The notes: generated by a model not told the origin, from the sequence alone. Numbered from the stretch's first letter, positions 22,105-49,680 are shown. The stretch: 64,000 nucleotides of DNA from a virus (IMGVR_UViG_2788499831_000001:1-64000), one strand, 5' to 3'. Numbers and translations: made by a program.

Positions 22105-22308
22105 TTAATCATTATCATCAGCAATTAAATGTTCAATCCCTTTTGCTGCTTCATCATCGACATACATAGGTATCCTTTTTAAAATTTCTAGTATATCTTG
22201 AACAGATTGAATCTTATTCGGGTCAATTTTACGACGTGTTATCGGTTTTAACTTAATTGTGTTATTTGGCGTAGTTCTCCACATCGACTCATCCATCCTC
22301 CTAACCAA
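22105..22308 (-). CDS. hypothetical protein
   Basis: RBS aggagg; true start likely MDES. Confidence 0.6.
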   Translation of the reverse strand: MVRRMDESMWRTTPNNTIKLKPITRRKIDPNKIQSVQDILEILKRIPMYVDDEAAKGIEHLIADDND

Positions 22309-22899
22309 ATGTCCATTTTGTTCAATAAAAAAAAGAACACTATAAAGTGCCCTAAGCTTCTGAGTATTAAATATACGACAATGCCCTGCCCGTTCTAATG
22401 GCGCAACATAAAAGAGCTTTATAGCGGAATATATATAGCTCTCGGAAAAGGAATAAGTTGGTTGGCATTGACTCGATATTGTATGTTTGGGAATTCCTTA
22501 TGTGCAATAAAAAAAGAGCCCTATAAGGTGCTCGTCCAATACGATTATAAAGAATGAATACGTCGTGTTCAGTTATTAGTATATGCTTGTCTCATTCAAA
22601 GTTTTACTGGTTTAATGTGTAATTTCTATATAACAAAGAAAAAAGCACCCGTTATGGATGCTATAACTCACTTTTTAAGTATGGAATACTTATGATTTTA
22701 TTTTTATCCATTGGAATAGTTACAGCCCTCAATTCCTTGACTGCTTCCTTTTCATCCAATGTACTATTCTTTAATTGTTTTTCTAACAATTCATTATTCG
22801 CAATCACTGTAATAGTTAATTTACTATTATTCATGTCCTCATCCTTTCTTCAAAAAAAAGAAACCGCTACAATTATGTAACGGCTTTTTTACGGCTTAT

Positions 22900-23710
22900 A
22901 AAAATATTAAAAGGGATGGAAGAAATTCACGTTCGTACATAAGGGGATATGTTTATGTGAATTCAAGGCTGAGTACTCTCAACCTTCTCCAAGCCACCGC
23001 ATCATGTAATGTTTTAGCTCTCATTAGCTACGCGCTTTACGTTCGGTGACTGGGAGAAGACTAAGAATCTTCTCGTTTTAAGTCCGTGGACTCGAGAGCT
23101 ATGGTGTAACTCTCTTATAAAGGTTTTTTAATTTTTATCAAGACGTATGTGTTTCTTCCAACGCCTTGTTTGAACCAATATACAGGGAGGACAGTAGACT
23201 GTCTATATTGGCTCAAACAAAGAGCGGAAGCTCTCTGCTCAACGAAAAATGTGAGTAATTCGTTAAAAGTGTAATTTATATCGTCCAAACTGGTGAAGAG
23301 AAGCCTATTTTAATATTTGTTTTCTTTCCATAAACGTGATGTTCATTTACTCATAAACAACCACCCCATTCCATTTCCAAAAACAAACAACAGAGAGTAA
23401 TAGACTTATATTCACTATCAACCCAGAGGACGCATTCTGGGCTGAGTGGTAAATATAATAGAAACAGCATGACGAATGCGAGTTATCTCACACCCGCCAC
23501 ACTGGAATATGTCTTAATTAGTTTTAAAGCTTTTAGCAATCCTTTTTCTTCTTTAAAGGGAATCTTCTCACCCTTAACCACGGATTTTTACCGCCGATAC
23601 CCTGCACCTATACATTTTGTTGCAGTAACGTTTTGTTAATGGGGTTATTCCGTAACGGATTGTGATTACCGAATAAGTACGCTATCCCCTAGTTATGCTG
23701 TTTTCAAAGA
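22900..23710 (-). ncRNA. hairpin-rich non-coding region (candidate long structured RNA or late leader)
   Basis: No ORF >=60 aa; about a dozen inverted repeats; strand inferred from the upstream arpU-like gene. Confidence 0.5.
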
Positions 23711-23719
23711 GCAATTAAC

Positions 23720-23785
23720 TGTAGGTATAGCGTACCGTTTATTCAATTGTTAAAAGGTGCTGAAAAAGGTGCCCAAAAGTGACAT
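23720..23785 (-). promoter_or_regulatory. probable ArpU-activated late promoter with three direct repeats
   Basis: aaaaggtgc at 23752 and 23764, aaaagtgac at 23775 (+ strand), directly after the arpU-like stop. Confidence 0.5.
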
Positions 23786-23794
23786 TTTTTATCT

Positions 23795-24175
23795 TTATGA
23801 AATCATCCCGAGCGCTTTTGCAACGCTTAGTACAGCTGATTTTCTTTTTCTATAGAATGTCCGTTTATGTAGCCCGAGCACTGTATAAATGTAATCATCA
23901 TTTAGCAGCTTTATATTCATATACTTCATTTCAAGTATTGATTTCTGATCTTCGTCTAAAGCTTCTTCTAAAGTCCGTTTAATTTGAATGTAGCGTAGAT
24001 AATCCTGATTCTCTTCTTCTTTATTTGCTCTTAACTCTGGGAATAACAACTCCACTCCAAATGCTGTACGTTCTTGTCTGTTTTGGTATTTCACTTTAAG
24101 CACACGGTAGTCTTGCAGTGCTTCAATTACATATGGTCTAATCGCTTTTTCATCAATTAATTGTTTTTGTCCCAA
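23795..24175 (-). CDS. ArpU/RinA-family late transcriptional activator
   Basis: Ends with LHKRTFYRKRKSAVLSVA HTH; last gene of the early operon. Confidence 0.85.
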   Translation of the reverse strand: MGQKQLIDEKAIRPYVIEALQDYRVLKVKYQNRQERTAFGVELLFPELRANKEEENQDYLRYIQIKRTLEEALDEDQKSILEMKYMNIKLLNDDYIYTVLGLHKRTFYRKRKSAVLSVAKALGMIS

Positions 24176-24313
24176 ACTAGAATCCCCCTGTTTCGAATTT
24201 TGGTTTTTACATTCACATCAGGTACGTGAAATTTTACTATCTCTTTGTTGAATAAGGGAACGATGACTACAATACAGCCCCCACCACACTGTTAGTCATG
24301 GTTCCGCTATCCA

Positions 24314-24520
24314 TTAAGCTGTCTTTTGTCCAACTGTTATTCCACTACTAAACCGCCACCCATCATTTAAATGGTCCATTAACTCCTGATACGTAAATAC
24401 ATCGAATACCGTAACGCACTGATTATCTCCAAACCCTGGCTCTTTTCGAAACAACATATATTCTCTTGTACCTTCGTATCTTTTTATGACACTCACTCCT
24501 TTATGATCTTGTCCATTCAC
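24314..24520 (-). CDS. hypothetical protein
   Basis: ORF coupled to DUF1064 gene; start uncertain. Confidence 0.55.
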   Translation of the reverse strand: MNGQDHKGVSVIKRYEGTREYMLFRKEPGFGDNQCVTVFDVFTYQELMDHLNDGWRFSSGITVGQKTA

Positions 24521-24923
24521 CTAACTTCTTGTCCCATATCACAACGATTAACTCCTGTTTGTTTAAGTACTCCCATAGTTTCTTACGTAACGGGAATCCC
24601 TCGTTTATTGCTTTCTTATGCCCTTTTACATCAACCACCTCTACACGCCCATCTGAGTACGTTACTTTAAAGTCTGGCGTAAACTTCATAGATGTCTTTT
24701 TCGACTTACCTGACTTCGTTATGCTGCTCTTAATCTCAAAAGATGGTACTAAGGTATAGGATGGATGGCACTCAATATGAGAAACATCCTCCCGTCCCTG
24801 TAAGTACTTGTAATAGTTCATTTCTGACTGTGAATCAAAGTTTATTCCGTCATAAGTCACTTTCTTCTGTTTAATCCGTGGTGCATTCTTTTTCTTAGCT
24901 GTTGTCTTTCTTTTTCTAATCAA
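24501..24923 (-). CDS. DUF1064-family putative endonuclease
   Basis: DGINFDSQSE, FTPDF and VVDVKG (PD-(D/E)xK-like). Confidence 0.8.
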   Translation of the reverse strand: MIRKRKTTAKKKNAPRIKQKKVTYDGINFDSQSEMNYYKYLQGREDVSHIECHPSYTLVPSFEIKSSITKSGKSKKTSMKFTPDFKVTYSDGRVEVVDVKGHKKAINEGFPLRKKLWEYLNKQELIVVIWDKKLGEWTRS

Positions 24924-24939
24924 TTATTAACCTCACCTT

Positions 24940-25113
24940 CTATTCCATTTGCTCTTTACACTCTTCAAGAAAATCAATAACTTCCTGAACGTGCTCCCTT
25001 GTTGTCATACTCTCCATTACATATCCTTCATCGTTATAAACATTAACCTTATTTCCTGCAAATTCCATTCCACACATTCCGTCTGCGCCTAATAGCTTTA
25101 CGTTACCTTCCAT
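24940..25113 (-). CDS. 57-aa hypothetical protein MEGNVKLLGADGMCG... (not in ORF track)
   Basis: RBS gcgaggt, open frame, fills an intergenic gap. Confidence 0.6.
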   Translation of the reverse strand: MEGNVKLLGADGMCGMEFAGNKVNVYNDEGYVMESMTTREHVQEVIDFLEECKEQME

Positions 25114-25130
25114 TCTTTTAACCTCGCTTT

Positions 25131-25463
25131 CTATTCTTCGTTTTTTACATAAAACAATTTCATGTAGAAAAATGCCATTGCAAAAGTAACCAATTCTGCA
25201 CCAACTTTATAATATTCAGCATGCATCATATAAATCGCAGCTGCTAACGCTGCAAATACAGGGCCTACTGTGAAAACCATTACTGCCAACCTATTTGTGC
25301 ATCCATTACGAAGTACAATTGTTATTCCTACTACAATTAGTAGATTTCCTATATTTCCTATGATTCTAGGCGTGTTCAAGTCATAAATACTTATTCCTAA
25401 TGATGTTATTGCGCTTGCCCACATTATTGCTAAAATTGTATTCACTAACTTAGGTGAAAACAT
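25131..25463 (-). CDS. membrane protein (about 4 TM)
   Basis: Highly hydrophobic 110 aa. Confidence 0.7.
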   Translation of the reverse strand: MFSPKLVNTILAIMWASAITSLGISIYDLNTPRIIGNIGNLLIVVGITIVLRNGCTNRLAVMVFTVGPVFAALAAAIYMMHAEYYKVGAELVTFAMAFFYMKLFYVKNEE

Positions 25464-25491
25464 ATTTCCACTTCACTTTCTATTAAAAGGA

Positions 25492-25842
25492 TTATTTTGT
25501 TATGTTTTTACCTTCATGAATATTACCGATTATTTTAAAATTACGACTCAAGCTTTGATACCACTCTGAACCATCTTCATTTGTTGTCAACGCAATAAAT
25601 TGACATCTCTTTTCATCCCAAACAATTTTATGTTCATCACCAAAAGGATTCTTAACGATGTCCCCTTCGTAAATTTCACTTCCATGAAAATCCTTTAATC
25701 CTGTGTATTGCTGTGGATTTAGACATGTATACCAACTATCATCTTCACTATTTAATATCCACCAATTATCGCCATCTTTTGATACACATTCGCTATAAAT
25801 CCAACTTGATCCATCCCAAGCACGGAATTTAATTTTTCTCAT
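25492..25842 (-). CDS. YopX-family protein
   Basis: IKFRAW, QYTGLKD, EIYEGDIV and IGNIHE motifs. Confidence 0.9.
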   Translation of the reverse strand: MRKIKFRAWDGSSWIYSECVSKDGDNWWILNSEDDSWYTCLNPQQYTGLKDFHGSEIYEGDIVKNPFGDEHKIVWDEKRCQFIALTTNEDGSEWYQSLSRNFKIIGNIHEGKNITK

Positions 25843-25916
25843 TTCCCTCTACCTCCCCTGAATAAAACTCAATATTCCGTCAATACTGTAGACAACCCAT
25901 TTCTTAACCTGAGCAG

Positions 25917-26315
25917 TTAGCTTTTGCTAGCTGCTCTTTTGTTTTCTGGATCTTCGAATTTCGCTTTTAATCGTTCGTAATCTCGTCTTTCTTGCTCTTC
26001 TTTTCTTTTTTTATATTCTTCTTGTTGTTTCTGTTGTTGTAAGAGCCTTTGATTCTCATACTCTTGAATCTCTTCATGAGATATTATTCCTTTTTCATGC
26101 AATGTTTTTCTTAACCAATTATGATTTAACACATATGCTCTTGCGTTGCCTTTGCCGTATACACTGATTTCACTGCTGCCATCATCTTGGAATTGCTCAA
26201 CTACTAAGATTCCCTTATCTTTTGTAACGATTGTAATAGCTTTAGCAAATTGAGCCATGTGTGTAAAAGCTATTTCTTTCCCGTTTAAATCCTCTTCTTT
26301 TGAAATAAAGTACAT
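25917..26315 (-). CDS. hypothetical protein
   Basis: 132 aa, coiled-coil C-terminus. Confidence 0.7.
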   Translation of the reverse strand: MYFISKEEDLNGKEIAFTHMAQFAKAITIVTKDKGILVVEQFQDDGSSEISVYGKGNARAYVLNHNWLRKTLHEKGIISHEEIQEYENQRLLQQQKQQEEYKKRKEEQERRDYERLKAKFEDPENKRAASKS

Positions 26316-26352
26316 TTAGCATCTTCCTTTTCTACAAAATGAAATTTTTATA

Positions 26353-26547
26353 CTAATCTTCCTCAAGAACCGTAACAGTTAAGTAATTCCTAGCTCTCTT
26401 TCGCTTTGCTAACTTCCTCTGATAAGCTGGCGTTGTGTAATAACGAACTGTTGCAGGAAGTACGCCCATATGTTGAGCGCATTCCTTTGCAGTTCCAATA
26501 CATACGAATGATTCACCTTTATAAACGACGTACTCCTTTAAGTTCAT
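26353..26547 (-). CDS. small HTH-like hypothetical protein
   Basis: GTAKECAQHMGVLPATVRYY. Confidence 0.7.
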   Translation of the reverse strand: MNLKEYVVYKGESFVCIGTAKECAQHMGVLPATVRYYTTPAYQRKLAKRKRARNYLTVTVLEED

Positions 26548-26588
26548 TTCTCATTCCCCTTGTCTACAAAATGAAGTTTTTGTTTGAA

Positions 26589-27305
26589 TTACCCTTGATA
26601 CTTTTTAAATAACTCGGCCATTGACATATTGTTGTATTTCGCCAAGTCCTTCGTTACGGCACATACATTACGGAAAGCTGTACAACCCACTCCAACATCA
26701 AGGTATTCTAGTAGATCCACATACCAATCATTTCGATATGTTTCTTCATCATCGTTTACTGTTTCTACCCAGCATACTAATTCTTGGTGGTTGACTTCAG
26801 CTTTGTCGGTAGGGATCGGTTGATTACTTCCTGTATCCCAGCGCCATCCACCATTTTTCCAATGACCATCATCTAAATCTCTGTTATCCGCATCATCACT
26901 TAGTTTTTTGAAATCATCATCTGAAACTTCATATACCTGGTACGATGTAGTTTCATCACCATATGTTCTCGTTGCATAAACCCCTAATCTTTTTAAATCT
27001 TCAGTTATGTTCCCCTGCACTAAGATTTCTTCTACCTTAATAATTTCATAAGCTTTGCAAATCCAAGGATCTTCATCATCTTCCACATCATTTGCTAAGA
27101 ATATTTCCACCTTTACTTCTAGACCGTTCTCCATAATTGCAATGCACTCATAATAATCATCTAAAAACTGTTCCTTCTCATCCCTTGTATCTACTAAAGA
27201 CCCCCACTCATCCGGGAAACTATCAAAGAAATGTTCTATAGCCCCTCCTAACTGTAAGTAATCACCATACGTATTTTCATAAACTAATTTTTCTTCCATT
27301 TTCAT
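26589..27305 (-). CDS. hypothetical two-domain protein
   Basis: 238 aa; N-terminal domain paralogous to the C-terminal part of 27685..28110. Confidence 0.7.
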   Translation of the reverse strand: MKMEEKLVYENTYGDYLQLGGAIEHFFDSFPDEWGSLVDTRDEKEQFLDDYYECIAIMENGLEVKVEIFLANDVEDDEDPWICKAYEIIKVEEILVQGNITEDLKRLGVYATRTYGDETTSYQVYEVSDDDFKKLSDDADNRDLDDGHWKNGGWRWDTGSNQPIPTDKAEVNHQELVCWVETVNDDEETYRNDWYVDLLEYLDVGVGCTAFRNVCAVTKDLAKYNNMSMAELFKKYQG

Positions 27306-27341
27306 TCTCCTTTTCTAATAAAATAGCGTTTTTATAACAAA

Positions 27342-27749
27342 TTACTTGTCTTTGTATTCCATCTCCACAAAATCAGCTAATTCAATTTTTTTCTGTACTT
27401 CTTCTTCCAAATAGTGAAATACCGCTTCTTCTCCACCTTGTTCTCTAACATAGGAAATCCATTGTTTCTGTGAATCATCTAATTCGAGTTTTATTGTTGC
27501 TTTAACAATCATTGTGTTTTCACTCCGATCCATAGATTTTGTTTGTTTTTTCGAATCACCTGTACCGTTGCAAAATAGACAAGGTAATTCGTTACCTTTG
27601 AAATCAATTGCATATCCTTCTCCGTTGCATAATGAACATGCATCCATAAAATTCACCTCACTTCCATACAAGATAACGATTTTGTTAAGAAATTTTATAC
27701 GCCTTGCAAACCCATGATTCATCTTCTTTATCCTCTGCATCATCATCAA
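27342..27749 (-). CDS. hypothetical protein with CxxCxGxG Zn-finger
   Basis: CSLCNGEG and CLFCNGTG; start uncertain. Confidence 0.55.
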   Translation of the reverse strand: MMMMQRIKKMNHGFARRIKFLNKIVILYGSEVNFMDACSLCNGEGYAIDFKGNELPCLFCNGTGDSKKQTKSMDRSENTMIVKATIKLELDDSQKQWISYVREQGGEEAVFHYLEEEVQKKIELADFVEMEYKDK

Positions 27750-28110
27750 AACTGATTTCTATTTTTAATTTCAGTCCATTTTCCATAACAATGATACTTT
27801 CATGCGACTTATCAAGATAACTAGTTTCTCCATCATAATCATCTATCATCTGTCCCCACTCCTCAGGGAAACTATCATAAAAATGTTCTACTGCACCTTC
27901 TATATTCAGATAATTACCAAAAGAATTTTCATAAATCAAATTTTCTTCCTTTTTACGATTCTTATTCCCCGATAAAGCAAACGCATAACGTTCTATTGAT
28001 AGAGTGCGAACAGCTCCTTCCTCCGTTAAAGAAATCTCAATTCTCTTTATACCTTCTTCCTTTTGTTTTTCCTTATTAACCTGTACATCTTGACCATTAA
28101 ACTTAATCAT
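27685..28110 (-). CDS. hypothetical protein
   Basis: 141 aa, RBS agggag. Confidence 0.6.
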   Translation of the reverse strand: MIKFNGQDVQVNKEKQKEEGIKRIEISLTEEGAVRTLSIERYAFALSGNKNRKKEENLIYENSFGNYLNIEGAVEHFYDSFPEEWGQMIDDYDGETSYLDKSHESIIVMENGLKLKIEISFDDDAEDKEDESWVCKAYKIS

Positions 28111-28146
28111 TCTTCATTCTCCCTTTCTCCAAATAAAGATTTTGTT

Positions 28147-28332
28147 CTATTTCACTTCATGGATAATAACTAGTACTCTACCTTCCATGTTTTCGCTCCA
28201 AGAGTACACGCAACCCGTTTCCTCTAATACCGCTTCTAAACGTGGCAATACTTCTTGTACATCCTCTTTCTCAATAATCGCTTTTCCTTTACCCTCTAGT
28301 AACTCATCTAAATATTTCTTTAATTTATTCAT
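28147..28332 (-). CDS. hypothetical protein
   Basis: 61 aa, RBS ggagg. Confidence 0.7.
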   Translation of the reverse strand: MNKLKKYLDELLEGKGKAIIEKEDVQEVLPRLEAVLEETGCVYSWSENMEGRVLVIIHEVK

Positions 28333-28377
28333 GTTTACTTACCTCCATTTTTTAAAATAAGGATTTTTTTAAATTTA

Positions 28378-28472
28378 TTCACACATAAGTATTAAACTGT
28401 TATACTTAACAAACCTGATTAGAAATGATACATTCTATGGAAAGCCCTAGTCCTCTAGGGCTCTTTTTTTAT
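28378..28472 (+). ncRNA. candidate ~60-nt antisense sRNA unit
   Basis: TTCACA-N17-TATACT promoter followed by gccctag/ctagggc terminator with T-run. Confidence 0.45.
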
Positions 28473-28646
28473 TCAAATAAGAATTTTGTTTAAAAATTCA
28501 TTAACCTTATTGATTTCTTTGCATACATTACAATCACAAGGAATTCTACAGGTTTCCCTAGTCCAGTTACCTTGTATTCCTTGCACACCTTAAGGGAAGA
28601 ATCAGTTTATAACAAACGGGTTCTATTATTTTGGGTTATAAAATAA

Positions 28647-29171
28647 CTATTTTGTACTAATTGACTCCCAATCAAATGTTTCTAATATATTCAACAATCG
28701 TTCCACTTTTGGTGCTCTCCATGCCGTCATAGCGTATGTATGAGCTTTTGAAGTGTAATGATAATTATTTAGTTCAAGGTGACGTTTCGCTTCTTCTTTC
28801 GTTAGAAACATAGTGTCAGGCACAATAAAATCCTCTTCTTTTACAAACACCGTGTCATAGTATCCACATTCGTTCATATTGTTCTCTACATACTCCCATA
28901 ACTCATCGAAGTTCTCACTTTCATCATTGATAAGATTTTGTAATTCTTCATCTTCTTCAATATCCTCTTCAAAATATTCTTCCAAGAACTCCTTTAAGTC
29001 ACTAAATTTAGAGAATTTAACATGATCACCATCGTTAAAGAAACGCTCCTCGTTTCCTGGAACAGATCGATAATCCTTGATTACCCAAAACCGTGGTGAT
29101 GCGTTCCCATCAGTTTCTTGTGTTTTTAACTCCTGCTGCAGTTCCTTTAAAAATTGAATATCCTTGTTCAT
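28647..29171 (-). CDS. hypothetical acidic protein
   Basis: 174-aa ORF. Confidence 0.75.
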   Translation of the reverse strand: MNKDIQFLKELQQELKTQETDGNASPRFWVIKDYRSVPGNEERFFNDGDHVKFSKFSDLKEFLEEYFEEDIEEDEELQNLINDESENFDELWEYVENNMNECGYYDTVFVKEEDFIVPDTMFLTKEEAKRHLELNNYHYTSKAHTYAMTAWRAPKVERLLNILETFDWESISTK

Positions 29172-29210
29172 TTCCCATTTCCCCCTTTTGTAATCAAATA
29201 ACGCTTTTGT

Positions 29211-29498
29211 TTAGTTTTCTATCAATCCAACCACGATACACGGAATGCTCTTATCTTCTTTTTCCTCATAAATTTCTTCCAATGTTTTATAAACAGGAAA
29301 CCCAATACATTCCCATTCAATTTCTTCCTTACGATCTATTGTTTCAACACTAATTTCTTCTATTTCGTTACCTTCCTTCTGATAATCCATAACAAGATAT
29401 CCAACCGCTTCATATTTACTATTGGCTGCAATAACTTTCATAGTAGTCCAAATACCTTCTGAAGTTACTTTGTAAAATTCCATTTTCTTTTCCCTCAT
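29211..29498 (-). CDS. hypothetical protein
   Basis: True start probably MEFYKV. Confidence 0.7.
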   Translation of the reverse strand: MREKKMEFYKVTSEGIWTTMKVIAANSKYEAVGYLVMDYQKEGNEIEEISVETIDRKEEIEWECIGFPVYKTLEEIYEEKEDKSIPCIVVGLIEN

Positions 29499-29523
29499 TT
29501 CTTTACAAAATTCAAATTAGGTC

Positions 29524-30633: not shown

Positions 30634-31191
30634 TTAAGAAATATGTTTCCATTTATATCCGTAAGCCGTCTTTCTTTTTCCGTTACAACAAGCTGATATG
30701 CTACTAGCTACATTCACTCCTCTTCCTAACGACCTAGATGCTTCTCTAACTGATTCGAATGTATCTAACAGTATGTTGTCTAATGAATATTGAGCCACTT
30801 TTTTGTTGCAAGTATTTAACCCAGTTTCGAATGCATGTTTAACATTTTCTGCTTGTGTTACCCATTCTAGATTTCTTACGTCATTATCATCTCGTACACC
30901 ATTTTTATGGTTAACAAACGGTTTATTATCGGGGTTTTCGATAAACGCTTCTGCCACTAATCTGTGTATAGAAAATTTCTTAGATATTGTATCTATTGTA
31001 AAAACTGCGTAGGCGTAATGATTTTGCACCTGAATATGCGTTTTAAGTATCCTTTCTTTTATAATTTGCTTTCTACCGCATCTAACAATTGGTCTATCTA
31101 GGCTCAAAACCCGACCTTTATTCGATATTTTGTAATAACCTTCATATCCTTTTACATCCCTCCATTCTTCGCTATGCTGTGTGTTTTTCAT
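30634..31191 (-). CDS. free-standing NUMOD4-HNH homing endonuclease with C-terminal NUMOD1-like DNA-binding domain
   Basis: EEWRDVKGYEGYYKISNKGRV, HRLVAEAF, VNHKNG...NLEWVT, FESVREA. Confidence 0.9.
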   Translation of the reverse strand: MKNTQHSEEWRDVKGYEGYYKISNKGRVLSLDRPIVRCGRKQIIKERILKTHIQVQNHYAYAVFTIDTISKKFSIHRLVAEAFIENPDNKPFVNHKNGVRDDNDVRNLEWVTQAENVKHAFETGLNTCNKKVAQYSLDNILLDTFESVREASRSLGRGVNVASSISACCNGKRKTAYGYKWKHIS

Positions 31192-35473: not shown

Positions 35474-36301
35474 TCATTGTTCAAATACAATTTCTGATTG
35501 CCCGTTATTTGTTGTTTCTTCACTAGTTTCTTCTGCTTCAATAAATTCTGGTTCTGCTGTAATATCTTTTCGTACCACTTCGTCATGCTGCGCCTGCGTT
35601 TGGACTTCGATGCTGATTGGTAAGTATTTAAACATCGCTCTCACGACTGTTTTCTTCGCCATTTCTTCATAATCACTATCCCAAGGGCTGTAACTTTTTG
35701 ATTTCGCTCTAGTGCGGCGTTTTTCAACTTCGCTTTTTGGCATAAATTCCATTTGGTAACCACCATCTTTAAAATGTGCAACTGCATAAGCTCCAATGAA
35801 TGCCCCACGCTCTCCAAATGAAGGTTTGTGCTTTAATGTAGGTTGTAAGCCTAATTCGTATTCGAATTCATCGTTCTCGTACACAGCGTGAGCGTAAATA
35901 CTTTGGATGTGACCGGAACGTCTAGCAAGATCAATCATTCCTTTGTAGCCAATGATGAACTGTACTTCTTTTACCCATTGAGGATTTTGTTTCGTTCCAG
36001 CGTTCTTATTGAAGGGAATTAAGTAGCAATGACCTAACAATCCTGGCTCGAGTCCAAGTTGCACAGCTTGCATAACCGCTCCCATAAGTGAAGGTACTGT
36101 ACATTCAAGTAATGTTGGATTTGTTCGAATGGTTGTAAGTGCGATACGACTCATACGGTCCATATCCATATGCTTAGGTAATGCTTCAGCCATTTTAGGG
36201 CCCATCTTTTTCATATAAGCTTCTACCGTTTGTTCCGGAGTGGTTGGTGCACTTCCCTTACGAGTTGCTAATTGAGTTTTAACATCTTGATTAGTTGCCA
36301 T
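35474..36301 (-). CDS. recT: RecT-family ssDNA annealing protein
   Basis: AVQLGLEPG.LGHCYLIPF, FIIGYKG and MAKKTV motifs. Confidence 0.95.
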   Translation of the reverse strand: MATNQDVKTQLATRKGSAPTTPEQTVEAYMKKMGPKMAEALPKHMDMDRMSRIALTTIRTNPTLLECTVPSLMGAVMQAVQLGLEPGLLGHCYLIPFNKNAGTKQNPQWVKEVQFIIGYKGMIDLARRSGHIQSIYAHAVYENDEFEYELGLQPTLKHKPSFGERGAFIGAYAVAHFKDGGYQMEFMPKSEVEKRRTRAKSKSYSPWDSDYEEMAKKTVVRAMFKYLPISIEVQTQAQHDEVVRKDITAEPEFIEAEETSEETTNNGQSEIVFEQ

Positions 36302-36315: not shown

Positions 36316-37257
36316 TTATTTAATTGAAAATCTTCTTGTATTAGATTCTTTCGTATATTGTTTATATAAATCTGGGTGTTCTTCCTTAAAACGTTTACTA
36401 TCAAAGCGATTAGTAGAATAAGATTTCCAAAGAACTGTGTAATTCTCAGTAGCTCCTTTTGCTCTCTCTCCAAGCATTGCTTTCAATTTGTTTTCGTACT
36501 CTTTTTTCTGTGTATCTAACACTTTTAGTTCAGCTTCAATTTGATTACGAGCTTCTACTAATATCTCAGCTTCATTTGAGAGGCTTACAACGTTATCTTC
36601 AAATCCTTTTGGATACATTTGATTTAAGAGATTTGTAGACGCATCACTTCCATCGAACATTGGTGGTTCTAACTTCTCGACATGATTTTGCCAAAAGTCT
36701 TTTTCAATATCGATTAAGTACTGAATAACCTCTTCATCACGTTCAATCTTTTTATAGATGAATTTATTCCCGCCAATTAATACTGCAATCCACCATGCTT
36801 CATAACCTGTTACAGCCATATAATGTTGGCACTGAATGAGATAAGACGTTGGTACTTCTTCACCCTCCCATTCTTTCTTTAGATATTCAGATGCGGTTTT
36901 ACACTCAAGCCCTACCTTTTCACTGATAATGAGCCTGTCCACATTTGCGAGCATCCAAGGATAATCCGGATGTTGTAAGATTGCATTTCGTTTACGTACT
37001 TTCAATCCAGTTCGTGAACTAAATTCTTGTGCTACGACTTCCTCGAGAACATTTCCGAAGTGAGCTGCTTCACTTTGAATATCTTCTTCTGGCGATTCGC
37101 CAACTTTATCCATATAAACCGAAATTGGTGATTTCCATTTGTTTAGACCTGCAATAGCAGATGCATCAGAACCTCCAATACCTGCCTTTCTTGCTTCTAA
37201 CCATTGTTCATGAGCCATTTCTTTTGTTATTGCTAATACGTTTGCATTCATTTCCAC
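36316..37257 (-). CDS. YqaJ-family viral recombinase exonuclease
   Basis: GIGGSD, LANVDR, LECKT and YLIQCQHY motifs. Confidence 0.95.
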   Translation of the reverse strand: MEMNANVLAITKEMAHEQWLEARKAGIGGSDASAIAGLNKWKSPISVYMDKVGESPEEDIQSEAAHFGNVLEEVVAQEFSSRTGLKVRKRNAILQHPDYPWMLANVDRLIISEKVGLECKTASEYLKKEWEGEEVPTSYLIQCQHYMAVTGYEAWWIAVLIGGNKFIYKKIERDEEVIQYLIDIEKDFWQNHVEKLEPPMFDGSDASTNLLNQMYPKGFEDNVVSLSNEAEILVEARNQIEAELKVLDTQKKEYENKLKAMLGERAKGATENYTVLWKSYSTNRFDSKRFKEEHPDLYKQYTKESNTRRFSIK

Positions 37258-41800: not shown

Positions 41801-42943
41801 CTATATTATCCCTAGGTTTTTCTTCGGTAATTGGGAGTAAAAAATATTGCCTAATTGCTCGAACTTATTTAAGGACTCTGCAAATAAGTTTTTATCATTT
41901 TTCGCTAAAGCTAGATAATATAATTGAAATGCAGATAGCTCTCCATTTTCCTCTTTGAGACGTTCTAACATCCTGATAGCTTTTTCATTATCCCCTAATT
42001 GAATTTCTAAATAAGCTTTCTCAGCTATATGGATCGGATGAACATTATTTAATCCAACTTTCCACATTATTTTCAAAAATTCAATCGTGTTTACCATCAT
42101 ATCGTTACGTAAACTCATACGAGCGTTAAGTTTCTTCTCTAATATTTCAATTGCTTGGTTAATATAATGCGTTGCTGTTTCAAAACTTTCAAAAGTGTAC
42201 GATTCTCCTAAAGTTCCATATGCAGTAGCTACGATCATCGGAAACCGTCGTCGTAACTCTTCCCTGTTTATAATTTCATGACATGTAGTTCTTGCTTTTT
42301 CTACTTCACCTGACATTAACAGTCCTTGAATCATACATTCTTTAATTTTGTATTCAAAGGAGAGCTTTAAATAAGGATCCGAAATTGAATCCACCTCTTC
42401 CAATAAGATAGCAGCAGTATCATTCAGCAATTTGAAATTCCTTCTATCAGCTGTTGCAAATAACGATAAGATTTCAAATAAAATTTGCATTTCGGTTGTA
42501 GATAACTTTATTTCCTTCTTTGCCTGATGTAGTCGTTTTTGCAATTTCTTCCCTGACAACTCGCCCTTATTACGTAAGTAAATTAGTTCATAAACATAAG
42601 CCCATTCACGATTATCTTTATCATGAGATGTTTTTTCAATGTCGACCAATTGTTTTAATAATTCCTGTTCACCATGCACAGCGAGATAATCCATCGCTAA
42701 CCTCTTATTGATTGGTTTATCCGTCTGAGAAAAATATCTTTCGCAACACATTCTTCTTGTAGTTACATCGTTAGGGAAAACTTCTTTTAATAATTCACCA
42801 TAAGTATTAGACCTCATTTGAGACTTCCCATTAAGGAAATTAGAAATGGTAACATGTGTTGTGTTGATCTGTTTTCCAATTTTACGAGTGCTCATTCTGT
42901 GAAAATTGATTTGATTTGAAATCTTATTTAATACCTCTTGCAC
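41801..42943 (-). CDS. aimR: AimR-family lysis-lysogeny peptide receptor (HTH + TPR)
   Basis: ~380 aa from GTG after aggagg; N-terminal HTH, TPR-like helices, adjacent pro-peptide. Confidence 0.88.
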   Translation of the reverse strand: MQEVLNKISNQINFHRMSTRKIGKQINTTHVTISNFLNGKSQMRSNTYGELLKEVFPNDVTTRRMCCERYFSQTDKPINKRLAMDYLAVHGEQELLKQLVDIEKTSHDKDNREWAYVYELIYLRNKGELSGKKLQKRLHQAKKEIKLSTTEMQILFEILSLFATADRRNFKLLNDTAAILLEEVDSISDPYLKLSFEYKIKECMIQGLLMSGEVEKARTTCHEIINREELRRRFPMIVATAYGTLGESYTFESFETATHYINQAIEILEKKLNARMSLRNDMMVNTIEFLKIMWKVGLNNVHPIHIAEKAYLEIQLGDNEKAIRMLERLKEENGELSAFQLYYLALAKNDKNLFAESLNKFEQLGNIFYSQLPKKNLGII

Positions 42944-43048
42944 AGTGCTTGTCCTCCTTGTGGACAAAAGACACGTAAACCCCAATTTGTTACATATAAA
43001 GGAAAACGCGCCACTTTCAATCTAAGGTGTGTTATAATCAGTATGTAC

Positions 43049-43130
43049 AAGATCCGCGACAATGTTCCCTAGTCAGGTAGGGGGCAGTGTAAGTAGTGAG
43101 GCAAACACTCTTACACCGTGGGTCTTTTTT
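43049..43130 (+). ncRNA. three-way-junction structured RNA upstream of aimR (antisense sRNA or aimR leader)
   Basis: Closing stem aagatccgcg/cgtgggtctt, two internal hairpins, TG-TATAAT at 43030-38, 3' T-run. Confidence 0.5.
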
Positions 43131-43269
43131 ACGTCCGTTTTTTTATTGTATTAATAATACCACAAATTTCCCAATATTCTGTCGTATAGTTGTCTGAAAA
43201 CTATTGAGAAAGTTGAAAAACAGCTTCACATCAACGTTTTTAACCCATATGAATATTTTACCACAAATA

Positions 43270-43283
43270 AGAACTTTTGTTCT
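43270..43283. promoter_or_regulatory. candidate LexA (SOS) box
   Basis: AGAACTTTTGTTCT fits the Firmicutes GAAC-N4-GTTC core. Confidence 0.45.
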
Positions 43284-43376
43284 AGTTTTAGTCGTTTAAC
43301 AACTTATATTTTCATTCAGTTAATAAAACGACTTATTATAGTAGTATGATAGTGTAATATTTATACTTTAATTATT

Positions 43377-43721
43377 ATGATAATCTTTGGAAAAACTTTA
43401 AAACATTTAAGAAATTCGCGCGACTTAACGCAATTAGAACTAGCAGAGATTCTAAACTTAAGTCAAAGTCAGATTAAAAATTGGGAAACAGGTCGATTCC
43501 AACCGGATATCGAAACTTTAGCAAGTATCGCCTCCTTTTTTAATGTCTCTTTAGACGTTCTTGTGGGCTTCTCTAACAACTTTCAAGACGAACCAATACA
43601 ACAAGTCATTTCTGAAGCTAGGTCAACGTATGGGACGCTAGACGATGCTCAGAAAGAAAGGTTTTGTAATCAGTTGCTATTAATAATTCAGATGATTAGA
43701 GATAACCCCGAAACGTTCTAA
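43377..43721 (+). CDS. XRE-family transcriptional regulator
   Basis: LTQLELA...WETGRFQPD HTH. Confidence 0.88.
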   Translation: MIIFGKTLKHLRNSRDLTQLELAEILNLSQSQIKNWETGRFQPDIETLASIASFFNVSLDVLVGFSNNFQDEPIQQVISEARSTYGTLDDAQKERFCNQLLLIIQMIRDNPETF

Positions 43722-43989
43722 TCAAGGGAGCTAATACAGCTCTCTTTTTTTATACAGAAAAACTGTAACTAAAACGCTTACTAGCTCCGTTTGACTATAT
43801 TTTACATCCCGTCTTTTTCCAATAATAGCGGTAAAATATTCTTCTAAAGTCAGAAATTAGTGAAAAACAGACTATTTTTACTGTCATTACTGTGTTTATA
43901 TCAAATATGCAATATTGCATATCCATTAACTGTAATATAATCCATGTTTTGATTATATTATTCAGCACTTATTAGTGCTATAATCCGCT

Positions 43990-44116
43990 TTGACTAACTG
44001 CTATGAAAGCTCATGCCATTGCTAACGTGAGCAGTTAATCATCCACAGCTAGGGTAGACTCCCTAGATCGCGGTACTATTCCGCAGCCCTTAACAATTTG
44101 TTAGGGGCTTTTTTTA
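43990..44116 (+). ncRNA. candidate ~125-nt structured sRNA
   Basis: TG-C-TATAAT at 43976-84, three hairpins and a terminator with T-run, no ORF. Confidence 0.55.
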
Positions 44117-44212
44117 TTTCCTTTCGACAAAATATGACAAAATAGTTGTAACTGTTTCTGTTATTATGTTCTAGAAATCTTACATTTTATATTTTGGGGA
44201 CGGAGTGAAAAA

Positions 44213-44548
44213 ATGAAATCTAAAGGTATTGCGTATTTATTACATATTTTCCTTGGATTCTTAGGTGCGGGAAGATTTTATGTAGGAGATATCGGCATGG
44301 GTATCTTAAATCTTTTAACATTCGGTGGATTCGGTTTCTTATGGGTTATTGATCTATTCTTGCTTAGCGGACGTGTAGATTATAAGAATGCATTATTCGC
44401 TGCTCGTACTGCTGGAACTAACAATGTAAATAATGTTAATACAGTTCAAGTTAATATTGATCCGAATATGTTAAAGGGACTGCAAGCTGAACCTGCCGCT
44501 ACAACGCAAGGGGACAAAACTGACGGTGTAGATTTGTCTAAGAATTAA
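44213..44548 (+). CDS. TM2-domain (NINE) membrane protein
   Basis: KSKGIAYLLHIFLGFLGAGRFYVG...WVIDLF. Confidence 0.85.
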   Translation: MKSKGIAYLLHIFLGFLGAGRFYVGDIGMGILNLLTFGGFGFLWVIDLFLLSGRVDYKNALFAARTAGTNNVNNVNTVQVNIDPNMLKGLQAEPAATTQGDKTDGVDLSKN

Positions 44549-44784
44549 TAATGTGAGCACTCTTTTGAGTGCTTTTATTTTTTTCTCAATGACCAATATT
44601 AATTAACATGGTAAAATATAATATGTATTGGCATCCAATACATATTATTAAAATTAAAGTGGTTCAAGTCGGAGGAAGGCACCTTAGGGTGTCTTTTCTT
44701 TTGTACATCAATAAATATTCTTTCTATTCTGTTTTCATAAAATTAATGGTATATTTTGTATATAAATATTAAGGGGGAATAGAA

Positions 44785-45045
44785 ATGCAGTTACAAAACA
44801 TCGATCTAGAACTAAAAAAATTTCTTTACCAACAAATTTATGTACATAAAATCGGGTCAATCGATACTCTACTTGCAGAAGGATATATGTTTGATGCACA
44901 AGAGATACAACAAGCGCTAGAGGTATTTATGAGAAATGAACTCATAATACCTACAGTATCTACAATGCAAATAGGACAGAAAAAAGTAGATTTTATGCGT
45001 AATGATGAAAAATTTAGGATTTTAAAAGAAAATGATCAATTATAA
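44785..45045 (+). CDS. hypothetical protein
   Basis: 86 aa, RBS aagggg. Confidence 0.7.
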   Translation: MQLQNIDLELKKFLYQQIYVHKIGSIDTLLAEGYMFDAQEIQQALEVFMRNELIIPTVSTMQIGQKKVDFMRNDEKFRILKENDQL

Positions 45046-45144
45046 AAACAAATATTAGATAAACATGATTCAAGTTAAAGGAAAACGCCTTAAAATGTCT
45101 TTTTTCTCAATATAAGAGTTCTAAATGCATGCTATAATTTTAAT

Positions 45145-45225
45145 AGAAATTCCCTTTTGTGCAATGAGATAGAAATACCCAACCAACAACCCACTGTTAC
45201 GGAAATTCAGTGGGCTTTTCTTTTG
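45145..45225 (+). ncRNA. candidate ~80-nt sRNA
   Basis: TG-C-TATAAT at 45130-38; cccactg/cagtggg terminator. Confidence 0.45.
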
Positions 45226-45284
45226 TTTTTACATTTGTTATAATTTCTTTAAAGGTATTGCGATGTTTCTGTACGTATATAATA

Positions 45285-45416
45285 AAAGAAGAGATGCTAC
45301 TAACATCTCTTCAGGTAACTGCTACCGCAAGGTGAGTGGTTACAACTAAATACTACTTTTTAGATTTAGAAGACTTCCCACGCTTGCGAGGCTGACGGGT
45401 GGTCTTCTTCTTTTTG
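45285..45416 (+). ncRNA. candidate type I antitoxin RNA
   Basis: TATAAT at 45278; hairpins; terminator overlaps the 3' end of the convergent peptide gene. Confidence 0.6.
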
Positions 45417-45508
45417 TTTTTAGAAGTAATCTTCTTAACTACGAAAACTACGAGTTCTCGTACAATCGTCTTAATTACCTCTAATACTATTTGAAGAAAT
45501 AGATCCAT
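45353..45508 (-). CDS. candidate type I toxin, 51 aa (not in ORF track)
   Basis: MDLFLQIVLEVIKTIVRELVVFVVKKITSKNKKKKTTRQPRKRGKSSKSKK; aaggaggt RBS partly inside a hairpin. Confidence 0.7.
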   Translation of the reverse strand: MDLFLQIVLEVIKTIVRELVVFVVKKITSKNKKKKTTRQPRKRGKSSKSKK

Positions 45509-45794
45509 TGGCTACACCTCCTTCCCTCATCAAATGAGAAAAGGACAGTCGTAACCACCCACCCTACAATATACAGTTGTTCTTATTCTATCATACTTGT
45601 ACAAGCTCACCAATATAAAAAAGCCCACCTATTTCCGTAGGTGGGTTATATGTGATTTTGCACTTGTGCATTATTAAATAATACCAAGAATCCTTAATCC
45701 TCGTTCGGCTTCCCGATTTCTCTTCTTTTTTCGTCAAATCTCTGCTATGATTGAGGGTAGTTACATAGATTTTTAAACAATTAACTTTATATAA

Positions 45795-45915
45795 AATTAA
45801 AAAACCCCCGGCTTAGTTTTTAGATGGTTCAAGGTTGGTCGCCAGAACACCATTTAAAAACTCCAAAAGCAGAGGTTTTGTAAGTTACGTCATTTAGTTA
45901 TTGCTGTCTATATTG
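45795..45915 (-). ncRNA. candidate antisense copy-control RNA for rep
   Basis: TTGTAT-N17-TATGAT promoter on the - strand (45949-45921), two hairpins, 3' U-run. Confidence 0.55.
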
Positions 45916-46008
45916 ATAGTATCATAACTTCAAAAAAACGTAAATACAATTCCTCTATTTTGACATACCCAATTTTAAGCCGGGGTGGAAAATGGAGGAT
46001 TTTTTGTT

Positions 46009-46911: not shown

Positions 46912-47094
46912 TCAATTTAGGAGGATAAACATATAAAAATTTCACATACCATATCTGTTGTGAAAAAGAGATTTTTCGGTTCGTAGGGGATTTTAACGAA
47001 TCTTAGGGAGGACAAGCCTATGTCTTCCCTACCTCGTAACATGCGTTTTTGTAGATATTGCGAAGTCTTTGCGATGCCCTACGACCTCGCAAAC

Positions 47095-47200
47095 CAACAT
47101 TCAATGATTAACCAATGATAAATTTATCATTTTTGGTATATTTCATTGAATTAAAACGTAAGTATCTGTTAGAATCAAAAATATCAATGATTAACCATTG
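47095..47200. promoter_or_regulatory. candidate parC centromere/operator
   Basis: tcaatgattaacca at 47101 and 47184; palindrome aatgataaatttatcatt at 47114. Confidence 0.55.
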
Positions 47201-47221
47201 GTTTTTGAAAGGGGAATATAT

Positions 47222-48253: not shown

Positions 48254-48551
48254 GTTGAATCCTAAAAAGGATGAAAGACTGTATAACATGATTGTTAAAC
48301 TAGAAGAAGAAGGCGAAGGAGAGAAAGGATACGTTAATGATCAAGTGAAAAAACGTTTAGAAATGTATCAAGTTCTTTCTGAAGTAGCTGGAGAAGATGA
48401 CCCAATTGAAATAGTAAAGAAATTGTTAATCAACGTTAGAACTAACGGTGTGCAAATTGAGGAAACAGCAGTCGATGAACCTACCGATGAAGTTGCTAAT
48501 AATGCTATGGATTTAATTGATGGTCTTAACAATTGGAATAACATGAATTAA
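48210..48551 (+). CDS. ParR-like DNA-binding adaptor
   Basis: Overlaps the parM stop; size and acidic C-terminus fit. Confidence 0.7.
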   Translation: MTYLTNLQKKKLQIELNPKKDERLYNMIVKLEEEGEGEKGYVNDQVKKRLEMYQVLSEVAGEDDPIEIVKKLLINVRTNGVQIEETAVDEPTDEVANNAMDLIDGLNNWNNMN

Positions 48552-49603: not shown

Positions 49604-49680
49604 TGTTCAAGATTCCTATTTTCGGGATGTTTAAAAAATGAAATCTTTGACCACTCTTGTACTAAGAACTTAAAACAGGA

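Follow-up and report, generated by a model that had tools for sequence, protein, structure and literature searches.

A short ordered motif marks the joints of a probable gene-cassette array in temperate siphophages of the Bacillus cereus group

We describe an accessory-gene region of a temperate phage in which an oriented motif of 16-17 nt recurs at nearly every junction, and we propose that the segment from 25.5 to 29.2 kb is probably an array of about ten exchangeable cassettes with conserved linkers, whose units would be exchanged by short-homology recombination. The region lies in a window of 64,000 nt (the whole stretch of DNA analysed, IMGVR_UViG_2788499831_000001:1-64000; 36% G+C) from an 89-kb viral contig, and its genes are transcribed from the minus strand. 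Ten motif copies, here called joints, are packed into 3.7 kb of small, functionally uncharacterised genes (Table 1). Across related phages the joints keep a fixed order around hypervariable cargo, and homology breaks off at their edges. The initial annotation of the window, which had proposed an integron-like or microhomology-based cassette system with a protein-binding or antitermination site and chance as alternatives, is partly supported as a whole; its central observation, that the motif occurs at accessory-gene junctions, is confirmed, and more strongly than it had been stated.

On the coding strand the motif is the 17-mer A-Y-AAAA-W-N-N-T-Y-ATTT-K-R, which occupies plus-strand positions p-1 to p+15 relative to a position p listed in the initial annotation, where all ten listed 16-mers are indeed found. 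The window is AT-rich, and spacers between stop codons and ribosome sites might resemble one another by chance; the degenerate consensus first given, with up to two mismatches, has 27 matches in the whole window against 24.8 expected and hence no enrichment. With zero or one mismatch, all matches but one fall within 22306-29210, on a single strand. A matrix trained on the ten listed sites (leave-one-out scores, 8.9-21 bits) returns 11 matches of at least 16.6 bits, all on the minus strand within 22305-29210, and nothing above 12.4 bits on either strand of the other 82 kb. An independent matrix, derived only from 56 sites of nine other phages, yields ten coding-strand matches in the contig that score 16.9 bits or more, all in 25484-29210, against 0.10 on average and at most 2 in 500 dinucleotide shuffles of the region; its only two remaining matches of 12 bits or more are plus-strand reads of existing near-palindromic sites. 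This matrix upholds nine of the ten listed copies, leaves that at 22306 doubtful (below 12 bits) and adds one at 27669-27685, while the two positions put forward as weaker copies, 21023 (3.9 bits) and 29507 (-2.6 bits), do not belong to the set. No match to the motif occurs in the other 82 kb, which includes about 60 other gene junctions, or in 17 prophages with related RecT genes from other Bacillaceae genera, some of which have a similar G+C. Chance resemblance, which also would not account for central bases that are conserved and ordered across phages, is refuted by the ten-site matrix, the other-genus prophages and the independent matrix with its shuffles, and retains a negligible probability.

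Table 1. Coordinates of the joints, the cassettes between them and the candidate recombination enzymes
Feature	Sequence	Coordinates	Strand	Remarks
Joint a	ACAAAAGCGTTATTTGA	29194..29210	-	22.2 bits (independent matrix); begins right after the stop of gene 29211-29483
Joint b	ACAAAATAGTTATTTTA	28639..28655	-	22.7 bits; its TAG (28647-28649) is the stop of gene 28647-29171
Joint c	ACAAAATTCTTATTTGA	28473..28489	-	19.1 bits; ORF-less unit comes next
Joint d, first copy	AAAAAATCCTTATTTTA	28353..28369	-	17.2 bits
Joint d, second copy	ACAAAATCTTTATTTGG	28129..28145	-	21.8 bits
Joint e	ACAAAATCGTTATCTTG	27669..27685	-	17.1 bits; missing from the initial annotation
Joint f	ATAAAAACGCTATTTTA	27319..27335	-	20.5 bits
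Joint g	ACAAAAACTTCATTTTG	26567..26583	-	21.8 bits
Joint h	ATAAAAATTTCATTTTG	26335..26351	-	17.8 bits
Joint i	ACAAAATAATCCTTTTA	25484..25500	-	16.9 bits; includes the TAA stop (25492-25494) of gene 25492-25842
Solitary copy, doubtful	ACAAAATGGACATTTGG	22305..22321	-	11.7 bits (leave-one-out); <12 bits with the independent matrix
Cassette a-b		28647..29171	-	174-aa protein, phrog_3205 (PHROGs)
Cassette b-c		28490..28638	.	149-nt unit, no ORF; bounded exactly by two joints; conserved in other phages
Cassette c-d		28370..28472	+	103-nt unit, no ORF; plus-strand promoter-like site 28378-28406, plus-strand terminator 28443-28462
Cassette d-d		28147..28332	-	61-aa protein, phrog_33845 (PHROGs)
Cassette d-e		27685..28110	-	141-aa protein
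Cassette e-f		27342..27647	-	101-aa protein, phrog_18684 at the C-terminal end
Cassette f-g		26589..27305	-	238-aa protein, phrog_4643
Cassette g-h		26353..26547	-	64-aa protein, phrog_803 ('host nuclease inhibitor')
Cassette h-i		25492..26315	-	two genes, 132 aa (phrog_11750) and 116 aa (YopX)
RecT		35474-36301	-	Pfam 6e-60
YqaJ exonuclease		36316-37257	-	Pfam 1.2e-42

Upstream genes end at the joint itself: their stop codon either abuts it or sits within it, the latter in two copies, as first described, namely joints b and i, and at joint e the stop of gene 27685-28110 overlaps it by one base. The Shine-Dalgarno sequence begins 2-6 nt past the motif, closer than the approximately 10 nt originally estimated, and the start codon follows 18-22 nt past the motif end. 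Joint a is the first joint of the array in eight of the nine named relatives, and joint i is the final one here and in most relatives. The solitary copy at 22305..22321 stands between a terminator and gene 22105-22287, and its centre was not seen among the relatives' copies. Inside the array, the only gene junction free of the motif is that of the h-i pair, which is separated by a hairpin element (25911-25936).

The motif is a family trait of temperate siphophages of the B. cereus group. It is found in the same module and orientation in the nine named phages, in 46 of 117 IMG/VR loci fetched with the exact core of joint b, and in five B. cereus-group prophages located via RecT. In host chromosomes it remains at background level, with 8, 18 and 16 matches against 7, 11 and 8 for a control pattern. 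Sorted by their central bases, the copies fall into nine variants, a to i, which follow one common order: in the window and the nine named phages 211 pairs are concordant and 8 discordant, and in the 46 IMG/VR loci 775 and 45. This 'address' is not absolute, since 27 of 61 multi-member cassette families are found after more than one joint variant.

What lies between the joints turns over extensively. The 314 units examined belong to 197 families, with 16-40 families per slot in slots a-h, although families were set at the DNA level and diverged homologues are therefore counted as different; the cargo includes reverse-oriented genes and ORF-less units. Where one side of a junction pair carries a homologous gene (889 pairs), the other side is homologous too in just 39. 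Blocks of homology end preferentially at the motif, with 510 of 2093 5' ends at -10 to 0 (2.7% under random placement) and 462 of 1837 3' ends at +10 to +25 (4.3%), in counts drawn from related loci whose events are not independent. Identity profiles confine the segment common to junctions to positions -1 to +14, with the stop-codon side tracking the upstream gene and the ribosome-site side the downstream gene, and isolated matches of 24-57 bp span junctions only, comprising the motif and the adjacent ribosome-site sequence.

A16R4 and MY192 differ by one gene, about 0.75 kb, with both breakpoints within joints g and h, and 10 of 26 clean indels have all three breakpoints at joints, with overlaps of 19-31 nt, where about 0.1% would be expected by chance for a single indel. 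The comparison of gain and loss breakpoints in related phages that the initial annotation had suggested is thus positive: gains, losses and replacements fall at or in the motif, which marks cassette junctions as it had claimed and agrees with its microhomology option. Because single-gene swaps, losses and gains in relatives occur exactly at the motif, the motif probably acts as a fixed gene-shuffling joint. The gene of cassette a-b has about 75% DNA identity to genes of SPbeta-like phages and of B. subtilis myophages such as SBSphiJ7 (Herelleviridae). The ORF-less b-c unit is matched from joint to joint in BMBtp3, PHBA67-J and McSteamy, and in Fah from about 24 nt inside joint b; in PHBA67-J and McSteamy it sits between c and d. 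The 3' part of cassette f-g is 92% identical to phage Athena as far as the next start codon. Cassette d-e clusters with f-g by single linkage, a clustering that over-merges.

We propose that the array occupies the early operon of a temperate siphophage of the B. cereus group, with the replication genes on one side and the late activator on the other, and that each cassette would comprise one gene or one RNA. Each joint may be viewed as an oriented element of 16-17 nt with an invariant 5' arm (AYAAAA), a slot-specific centre of 3-5 nt and an invariant 3' arm (YATTT). Partner phages, co-infecting or co-resident, could recombine within a joint and swap the unit between two joints with the genes left intact; nine variants in the same order across a pool of related phages make such in-joint exchange without gene breakage possible. 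Recombination between neighbouring, non-identical joints would delete or duplicate a unit. The joints would then persist since arrays and cassettes that keep them stay exchangeable. Short-homology recombination appears the most likely enzymology, carried out by the phage single-strand annealing pair RecT and YqaJ, which are candidate enzymes for exchange at the joints, by host RecA or by template switching. A shared segment of 16 nt is short beside the minimal homology lengths of RecA- or RecT-type recombination.

A dedicated integron-type recombinase is unlikely to act at the joints. Like integron cassettes bounded by attC sites, the units are mostly co-oriented, separated by direct repeats and very diverse in cargo. 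The attC sites are imperfect palindromes of about 55-140 nt that form hairpins as single strands. The joint motif neither folds nor shows pairing covariation, and is therefore not attC-like: 228 motif 20-mers gave a mean of -0.45 kcal/mol and no stable hairpin, with no covariation between positions 1 and 16. The array also differs from an integron in lacking IntI and attI, in providing each cassette with its own ribosome site and in the fixed order of its joints. Integron cassettes lack promoters and are expressed from a single one upstream. Here a search for sigma-70-like promoters on the coding strand found no site coincident with any joint, which is consistent with one operon, yet some units contain reverse-oriented genes or their own promoter and terminator. 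No recombinase was found by Pfam among the larger ORFs scanned from about 23.8 to 43 kb, and none was named by PHROGs among the genes of 22.1-30.6 kb. The only protein of the window with a Phage_integrase domain or tyrosine-recombinase fold (52439-53500) is encoded about 23 kb away, in another module, and is Xer-like to judge from its sequence matches: its best NCBIfam models are XerA and XerC, at 79 and 73 bits against cut-offs of 220 and 335, and its PDB matches are XerC and XerD. With neither an integron integrase nor a tyrosine recombinase near the array, nor attC-like folding, the term integron-like is not supported in its strict sense.

A different recombinase might nevertheless bind the invariant arms and use the centre as an overlap that must match, a reading that we judge quite improbable. 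It would account for the arm-centre-arm layout, with its rough dyad symmetry (AYAAAA-N6-TTTKR) and copies that are all direct repeats, and for position-specific centres in fixed order. Its candidate enzyme, encoded in cis or supplied by a co-resident prophage, is a 180-aa Phage_integrase-domain protein consisting of the catalytic domain only, which occurs in 22 of 61 array loci (the downstream flank reaches 3 kb or more in just 27 of the 61), invariably on the downstream side of the array and in many relatives adjoining ArpU, with the signature residues R, K, H-x-x-R, H and Y invariant in 20 members. The protein is absent from the present contig (tblastn E above 7) and from the ORFs of the fetched loci of Fah, McSteamy, BceA1 and 0105phi7-2 (blastp), although all five have the same joints in the same order, and a small enzyme beside late genes may just resolve plasmid-prophage multimers. 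Arms of 6 nt are far below the length of known tyrosine-recombinase sites. Also speaking against this reading, the g-by-h event united two sites with differing centres, and 27 of 61 cassette families follow more than one variant. If the reading were true, the array would be a naturally occurring system of recombinase-mediated cassette exchange whose sites are mutually incompatible: two phages could exchange units of the same slot only, and adjacent joints would be protected from mutual deletion.

The arms are strictly conserved, being nearly invariant across 349 unique copies, and orientation is strict as well; both features are also compatible with a binding site for a protein or RNA, at which recombination would be a side effect. 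The motif would in that case be primarily cis-regulatory, on mRNA or DNA, and a conserved phage factor or RNA would co-regulate the accessory genes through their translation, processing or silencing; we regard this as possible, if unlikely. Orientation follows transcription without exception in the nine relatives (56 coding-strand matches to 0), and the spacing to the start codon peaks tightly at 17-22 nt past the motif. A parallel can also be drawn to the start-associated sequences (SAS/ESAS) of Cluster K mycobacteriophages (Pope et al. 2011, PMC3203893), which are likewise asymmetric, one-oriented, restricted to non-structural genes and essentially absent from the host genome, and which precede genes of different families, sometimes with the upstream stop codon inside. 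In virtually all copies, however, a SAS includes the Shine-Dalgarno core and is 3-7 bp away from the start codon (PMC3203893), whereas the joints lie upstream of the ribosome site, have position-specific centres and in more than half of the cases are not followed by a recognisable ORF: a ribosome site with an ORF of at least 35 codons is missing downstream of 199 of 352 unique copies, which nevertheless score as well as the others (18.7 against 19.4 bits).

A further precedent comes from phage SPbeta, a Bacillus arbitrium phage in which repeated, conserved intergenic elements, the SPBRE operators, are bound by the recombinase-fold repressor MrpR/SroF (PMC10516654; bioRxiv 10.1101/2025.11.27.690993). 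As far as the accessible parts of these sources describe them, SPBREs are operators of 24-26 bp, read by a monomer and dispersed over some ten promoters, and are thereby set apart in length and distribution from joints of 17 nt at consecutive junctions of one operon; no MrpR-like protein was found in the window. Against the cis-regulatory reading, joints flank reverse-oriented genes and ORF-less units, form no stable hairpin, show no covariation and coincide with no sigma-70-like promoter, and the host has no corresponding regulon. No nucleic-acid-binding protein common to all array loci was found in the flanks covered, and regulation would leave the position-specific, order-keeping centres unexplained. 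The antitermination site offered by the initial annotation finds no support.

For exchange by short-homology recombination, the closest known kind, in the accessible portions of the literature, is the promoter-early stem-loop (PeSL) of T4-type phages (Arbiol et al. 2010, PMC2839356; Comeau et al. 2014, PMC4122927). As described there, PeSLs, like the joints, are short and conserved and recur in a hyperplastic region, where they separate non-essential genes of unknown function. In either system, insertions, deletions and replacements between related phages have their breakpoints in the motif, and exchange is ascribed to homologous recombination between its copies; excised mini-circles have been shown for PeSLs (PMC2839356, PMC4122927). 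A PeSL is a composite of a strong sigma-70 promoter and a terminator stem-loop in lytic myoviruses of Gram-negative hosts, whereas the joints are 16-17 nt long, have neither promoter-like site nor stem-loop, and belong to temperate siphophages of Gram-positive hosts, where they lie within a single operon. Their position-specific centres in fixed order were not seen among the features given for PeSLs in those portions.

The modular theory that Susskind and Botstein reportedly put forward for lambdoid phages likewise invokes 'linker' or boundary sequences between modules, and the idea is the same, in that short conserved inter-module sequences guide in-register homologous exchange. At the joints, too, homology between phages begins and ends at a short sequence common to otherwise unrelated neighbours. 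Lambdoid linker sequences are few and debated. The joints differ from them in marking nearly every junction of a ten-unit array, in delimiting single small genes and in bearing junction-specific signatures.

Phage genomes are mosaics, and the sites and manner of single-gene exchange among them have mostly been deduced from scattered breakpoints. The window, the opening 64 kb of a virus contig 89 kb long, carries a temperate siphophage of the Bacillus cereus group with its genes on the minus strand. At the DNA level it resembles known phages in patches that are scattered across dozens of Bacillus phages, indicating that the region is highly mosaic. Beyond 43 kb the window carries a second set of phage genes together with plasmid-type functions, and the contig resembles either a phage-plasmid or a composite.

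Coordinates of features in the window and, in the last row, of repeat-bearing junctions in another Bacillus phage
Feature	Position	Remark
Structural and lysis genes	~0.6-18 kb	
Late activator, ArpU-like	23795-24175	
Small accessory genes	24.3-30.6 kb	
HNH endonuclease, I-HmuI-like	30634-31191 (-)	NUMOD4/NUMOD1 domains; free-standing homing-type gene between replication genes and array
DnaC/DnaD-like replication genes	33.5-35.1 kb	
RecT	35474-36301	
YqaJ	36316-37257	
AimR, arbitrium receptor	41801-42985	
HTH regulators	within 43000-53500	
Actin-like partition protein	47198-48253	plasmid-type function, past 43 kb
PlyG-type endolysin	50890-51690	
Xer-like tyrosine recombinase	52439-53500	part of second phage gene set
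Second tail-gene set	from 53960 on	
SBSphiJ7 junctions	~1046-1100, 1263-1300, 1476-1500, 2760-2780	carry the CTTAGTAGCTCMCTG... repeat

Almost all small accessory genes of the array are separated by an oriented 17-nt motif, hereafter the joint, and the DNA between two consecutive joints is referred to as a unit or cassette. The initial annotation had listed ten 16-mers, all of them correctly positioned, which read A-Y-AAAA-W-N-N-T-Y-ATTT-K-R on the coding strand. With two mismatches allowed, the loose consensus that it proposed occurs 27 times in the whole window, which is no enrichment over the 24.8 matches expected, but its good matches do all fall on a single strand within a stretch of 7 kb. 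A matrix derived from the ten sites returns 11 matches scoring at least 16.6 bits, all of them on the minus strand between 22305 and 29210, and none above 12.4 bits elsewhere in the 89 kb. To escape circularity, a second matrix drew solely on nine other phages, which supplied 56 sites. This independent matrix places 10 matches on the contig's coding strand with scores of 16.9 bits or more, none of them outside 25484-29210, compared with an average of 0.10 and never more than 2 in dinucleotide shuffles of the array region. It recovers nine of the ten listed copies, leaving the one at 22306 doubtful, adds a copy at 27669-27685 that had been missed, and rejects the supposed weaker copies at 21023 and 29507. 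The motif is real and strongly non-random. Between 25.4 and 29.3 kb it occupies every unit boundary except the junction preceding the gene at 25492-25842, and it is absent from the junctions of replication, late-regulator and structural genes in the window. The stop codon of the upstream gene adjoins or falls within the motif, the ribosome site begins 2-6 nt past it and the start codon lies 18-22 nt past its end.

The same module carries the motif in the same orientation in the phages Athena, A16R4, BMBtp3, PHBA67-J, BceA1, McSteamy, Fah, MY192 and 0105phi7-2, which together contain 56 matches scoring 14 bits or more, every one of them on the coding strand. Scanning IMG/VR for exact copies of one variant of the motif gave at least 117 loci, and 46 of the 117 listed hold arrays of 3-12 copies. 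In B. cereus-group genomes, arrays are present in five of the eight closest RecT-bearing prophages. None was found in 17 prophages with related RecT from other Bacillaceae genera, including some of similar G+C content; the motif is therefore not a general low-G+C intergenic feature, and its interpretation as a general low-G+C translation leader was rejected. A strict pattern has 8, 18 and 16 exact matches in three complete or draft host genomes, compared with 7, 11 and 8 for a control pattern; there is hence no host regulon, and a site for a host factor was rejected. An entire group of temperate phages from the B. cereus group has the array in common, the Wbeta/gamma/Fah relatives among them.

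Each joint consists of invariant flanks, or arms, around a variable centre, and sorting the copies by their central bases defines nine variants: a (GCGT), b (TAGT), c (TTCT), d (TCTT or TCCT), e (TCGT), f (ACGC), g (ACTTC), h (ATTTC) and i (TAATCC). The window's own series is a b c d d e f g h i. This order is maintained across the window and the nine named phages, where 211 ordered variant pairs are concordant and 8 discordant, and across the 46 IMG/VR array loci among the matches listed (775 concordant against 45 discordant). Two of the loci, L023 and L091, read exactly abcdefghi, and a few contain internal duplications, such as abdefghi-defg. The result is a compact array of 17-nt joints, each bearing its own 'address', with very fast turnover of the cargo between them.

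The extent of this turnover is apparent at the DNA level, where the 314 joint-to-joint units make up 197 families, with 16-40 families among the 21-59 units sampled for each position in the array (slot) from a to h. Cargo genes may be reverse-oriented, as in the b-c and d-f intervals of PHBA67-J, and a unit may lack any ORF: the one at 28490-28638 in the window is conserved in four other phages at 75-86% identity, with a joint-to-joint match in three of the four. When a homologous gene lies on one side of a junction, homology seldom continues on the other (39 of 889 junction pairs). For homology blocks of at least 150 bp, 24% of the 5' ends fall within 10 nt before the motif, against 2.7% by random placement, and 25% of the 3' ends fall at +10 to +25 of the motif, against 4.3%. 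In pairs homologous only upstream, similarity is kept through the motif centre and reaches background at positions 15-17, while in pairs homologous only downstream identity stays at background up to position -2 and rises inside the 5' arm. The segment shared independently of the neighboring genes is therefore limited to positions -1 to +14, with the stop-codon side of the joint travelling with the upstream unit and the ribosome site with the downstream unit. The initial annotation was right to infer gene cassettes and to look for breakpoints at the motif: in relatives, homology ends pile up and some indels have all their breakpoints at joints.

Individual exchanges can also be traced. A16R4 and MY192 are identical upstream through joint g and again from joint h on, differing by a single gene (~0.75 kb), and the crossover maps within nine bases common to joints g and h. 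In 10 of 26 clean indels all three breakpoints are located at joints, with an overlap of 19-31 nt and a chance expectation of ~0.1% per indel. Furthermore, 27 of 61 multi-member cargo families are found after more than one variant, and exchange between different slots therefore also takes place. We propose that joints would serve as conserved linkers, where phages exchange units by recombination, and that occasional recombination between neighboring joints would cause the loss or duplication of a unit. The most likely route would be recombination on short homology, with a phage annealing protein and its exonuclease (here RecT and YqaJ), template switching or the RecA of the host as candidates. 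Annealing proteins of phages are known to act on homologies that are diverged or short (De Paepe et al. 2014, PMC3945230). The position-specific centres would favor exchange within the same slot, presumably because the identical stretch is longest between joints of that slot.

The arm-centre-arm layout also recalls recombinase sites with spacers that must match, suggesting site-specific recombination at the joints. A possible agent would be a catalytic-domain-only tyrosine recombinase of 180 aa that adjoins ArpU in 22 of 61 array loci, only 27 of which have at least 3 kb of downstream flank, and whose signature residues (R, K, HxxR, H, Y) are all invariant in 20 members. However, the contig of the window lacks this protein, as do several phages that share its joints; the arms are very short, and recombination has occurred between joints with different centres, making a site-specific mechanism improbable in our assessment. 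The stand-alone domain is encoded at L037:2602-3144 (-), L039:8378-8920 (+) and 18 other loci, directly after a 160-aa ArpU-type gene and downstream of most arrays, and could be involved in multimer resolution or act at joints.

A regulatory role for the arms of the joint offers another explanation, which we regard as possible but rather unlikely. Motif scores are equivalent for copies with a ribosome site and ORF after them (19.4 bits, 153 copies) and for those without (18.7 bits, 199 copies), which argues against a pure translation-start element. No nucleic-acid-binding protein common to all array loci was found in the available flanks, where only DnaD/DnaC-like replication genes are near-universal.

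Several specific candidates were rejected. No promoter-like site on the coding strand coincides with any joint, as a sigma-70 promoter per joint would demand, and sigma-70-like sites are depleted in the array region, with 15 where 32.7 would be expected. Fah, McSteamy and MY192 encode a sigma factor upstream of the array, yet the window has the same joints and no sigma-like domain among its scanned ORFs upstream of the array, which discounts a promoter for a phage sigma factor. Published ArpU sites comprise three 7-nt direct repeats before terS (PMC3753634), an architecture different from the joint motif and without a match to it, and the SPBRE/SroF operators of SPbeta are long and do not match it either. 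A three-frame stop linker was dismissed, given that the frames closed within -4 to +18 are no more numerous than in shuffles. The initial annotation was wrong about integron-type machinery. The motif does not fold and lacks pairing covariation. An attC-like hairpin of RNA or single-stranded DNA is discarded (mean folding energy -0.45 kcal/mol, no covariation between positions 1 and 16), and junction 50-mers fold no better than controls. The array is not an integron.

The promoter-early stem-loops (PeSL) of T4-type phages (PMC2839356, PMC4122927) are the closest known kind, a conserved motif that separates non-essential genes and serves as a point of module shuffling. Their defining promoter and stem-loop are missing in the joint, which adds addressed centres in a fixed order. 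The start-associated sequences (SAS) of Cluster K mycobacteriophages (PMC3203893) share with the joint a single orientation, absence from the host and restriction to non-structural genes, but the joint differs in position and does not require a downstream gene. A full-text literature search, with coverage that excluded three key papers on Wbeta, gamma and Fah, returned no description of the joint motif. The long-standing 'linker' idea of modular phage evolution is realized by the joints, and linker-guided exchange thereby becomes directly testable in a tractable Gram-positive system. Joints mark the location of fast-evolving accessory genes, which are likely to be host-takeover and anti-defence genes, and may be usable as natural landing pads in phage engineering.

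Junction elements also surround homologues of the window gene at 28647-29171 in other Bacillus phages. In SPbetaL2 (L198), related palindromes occur at ~3503-3540, 3940-3980 and 209-225, with ATAAAATCTTGTTTTTA directly before the homologue, TTAAAATCGTGATTTTA before the next gene upstream and a nearby copy identical to variant b (ATAAAATAGTTATTTTA, 18.8 bits). In the Herelleviridae myophage SBSphiJ7 (L199) the homologue resides in an array with a different junction repeat, CTTAGTAGCTCMCTG..., from which Bacillus phage lineages seem to own separate junction repeats. Taken together, the flanking elements of this gene suggest that the junction principle may be general and its motifs lineage-specific.

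Some units of the window present features of their own. The cassettes at 27685-28110 and 26589-27305 were grouped with cassettes of Athena and BMBtp3 in one family (F4) by a single-linkage clustering that over-merges; their paralogy, if true, would point to a unit duplicated within the array or to a single family captured more than once. The ORF-less slot at 28370-28472 contains a promoter-like site on the plus strand (TTCACA-17-TATACT with TG, 28378-28406) together with a terminator on the same strand (28443-28462). The end of the unit at 28490-28638 resembles, on reading the sequence, a plus-strand terminator, where the terminator scan called none. Both ORF-less slots may encode small antisense RNAs; no Rfam family was matched by joints or ORF-less units. 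In the non-coding stretch after the ArpU-like gene, beside a terminator at 22886-22861, positions 22858-22966 (-) match the RsaE/RoxS small RNA family over the full model length at a sub-threshold 49.1 bits (gathering score 79, E 8.4e-06), and may represent a phage-borne RoxS-like RNA. Lastly, arrays contain a second repeated element, a G+C-rich hairpin (GAGCAGTTAGC...GCTAGCTGCTC) located at 25911-25936 in the window and at several places in the comparison loci L004, L006, L002 and L008, which reads as a terminator for the strand opposite the operon and occurs at most three times per array in PHBA67-J and McSteamy.
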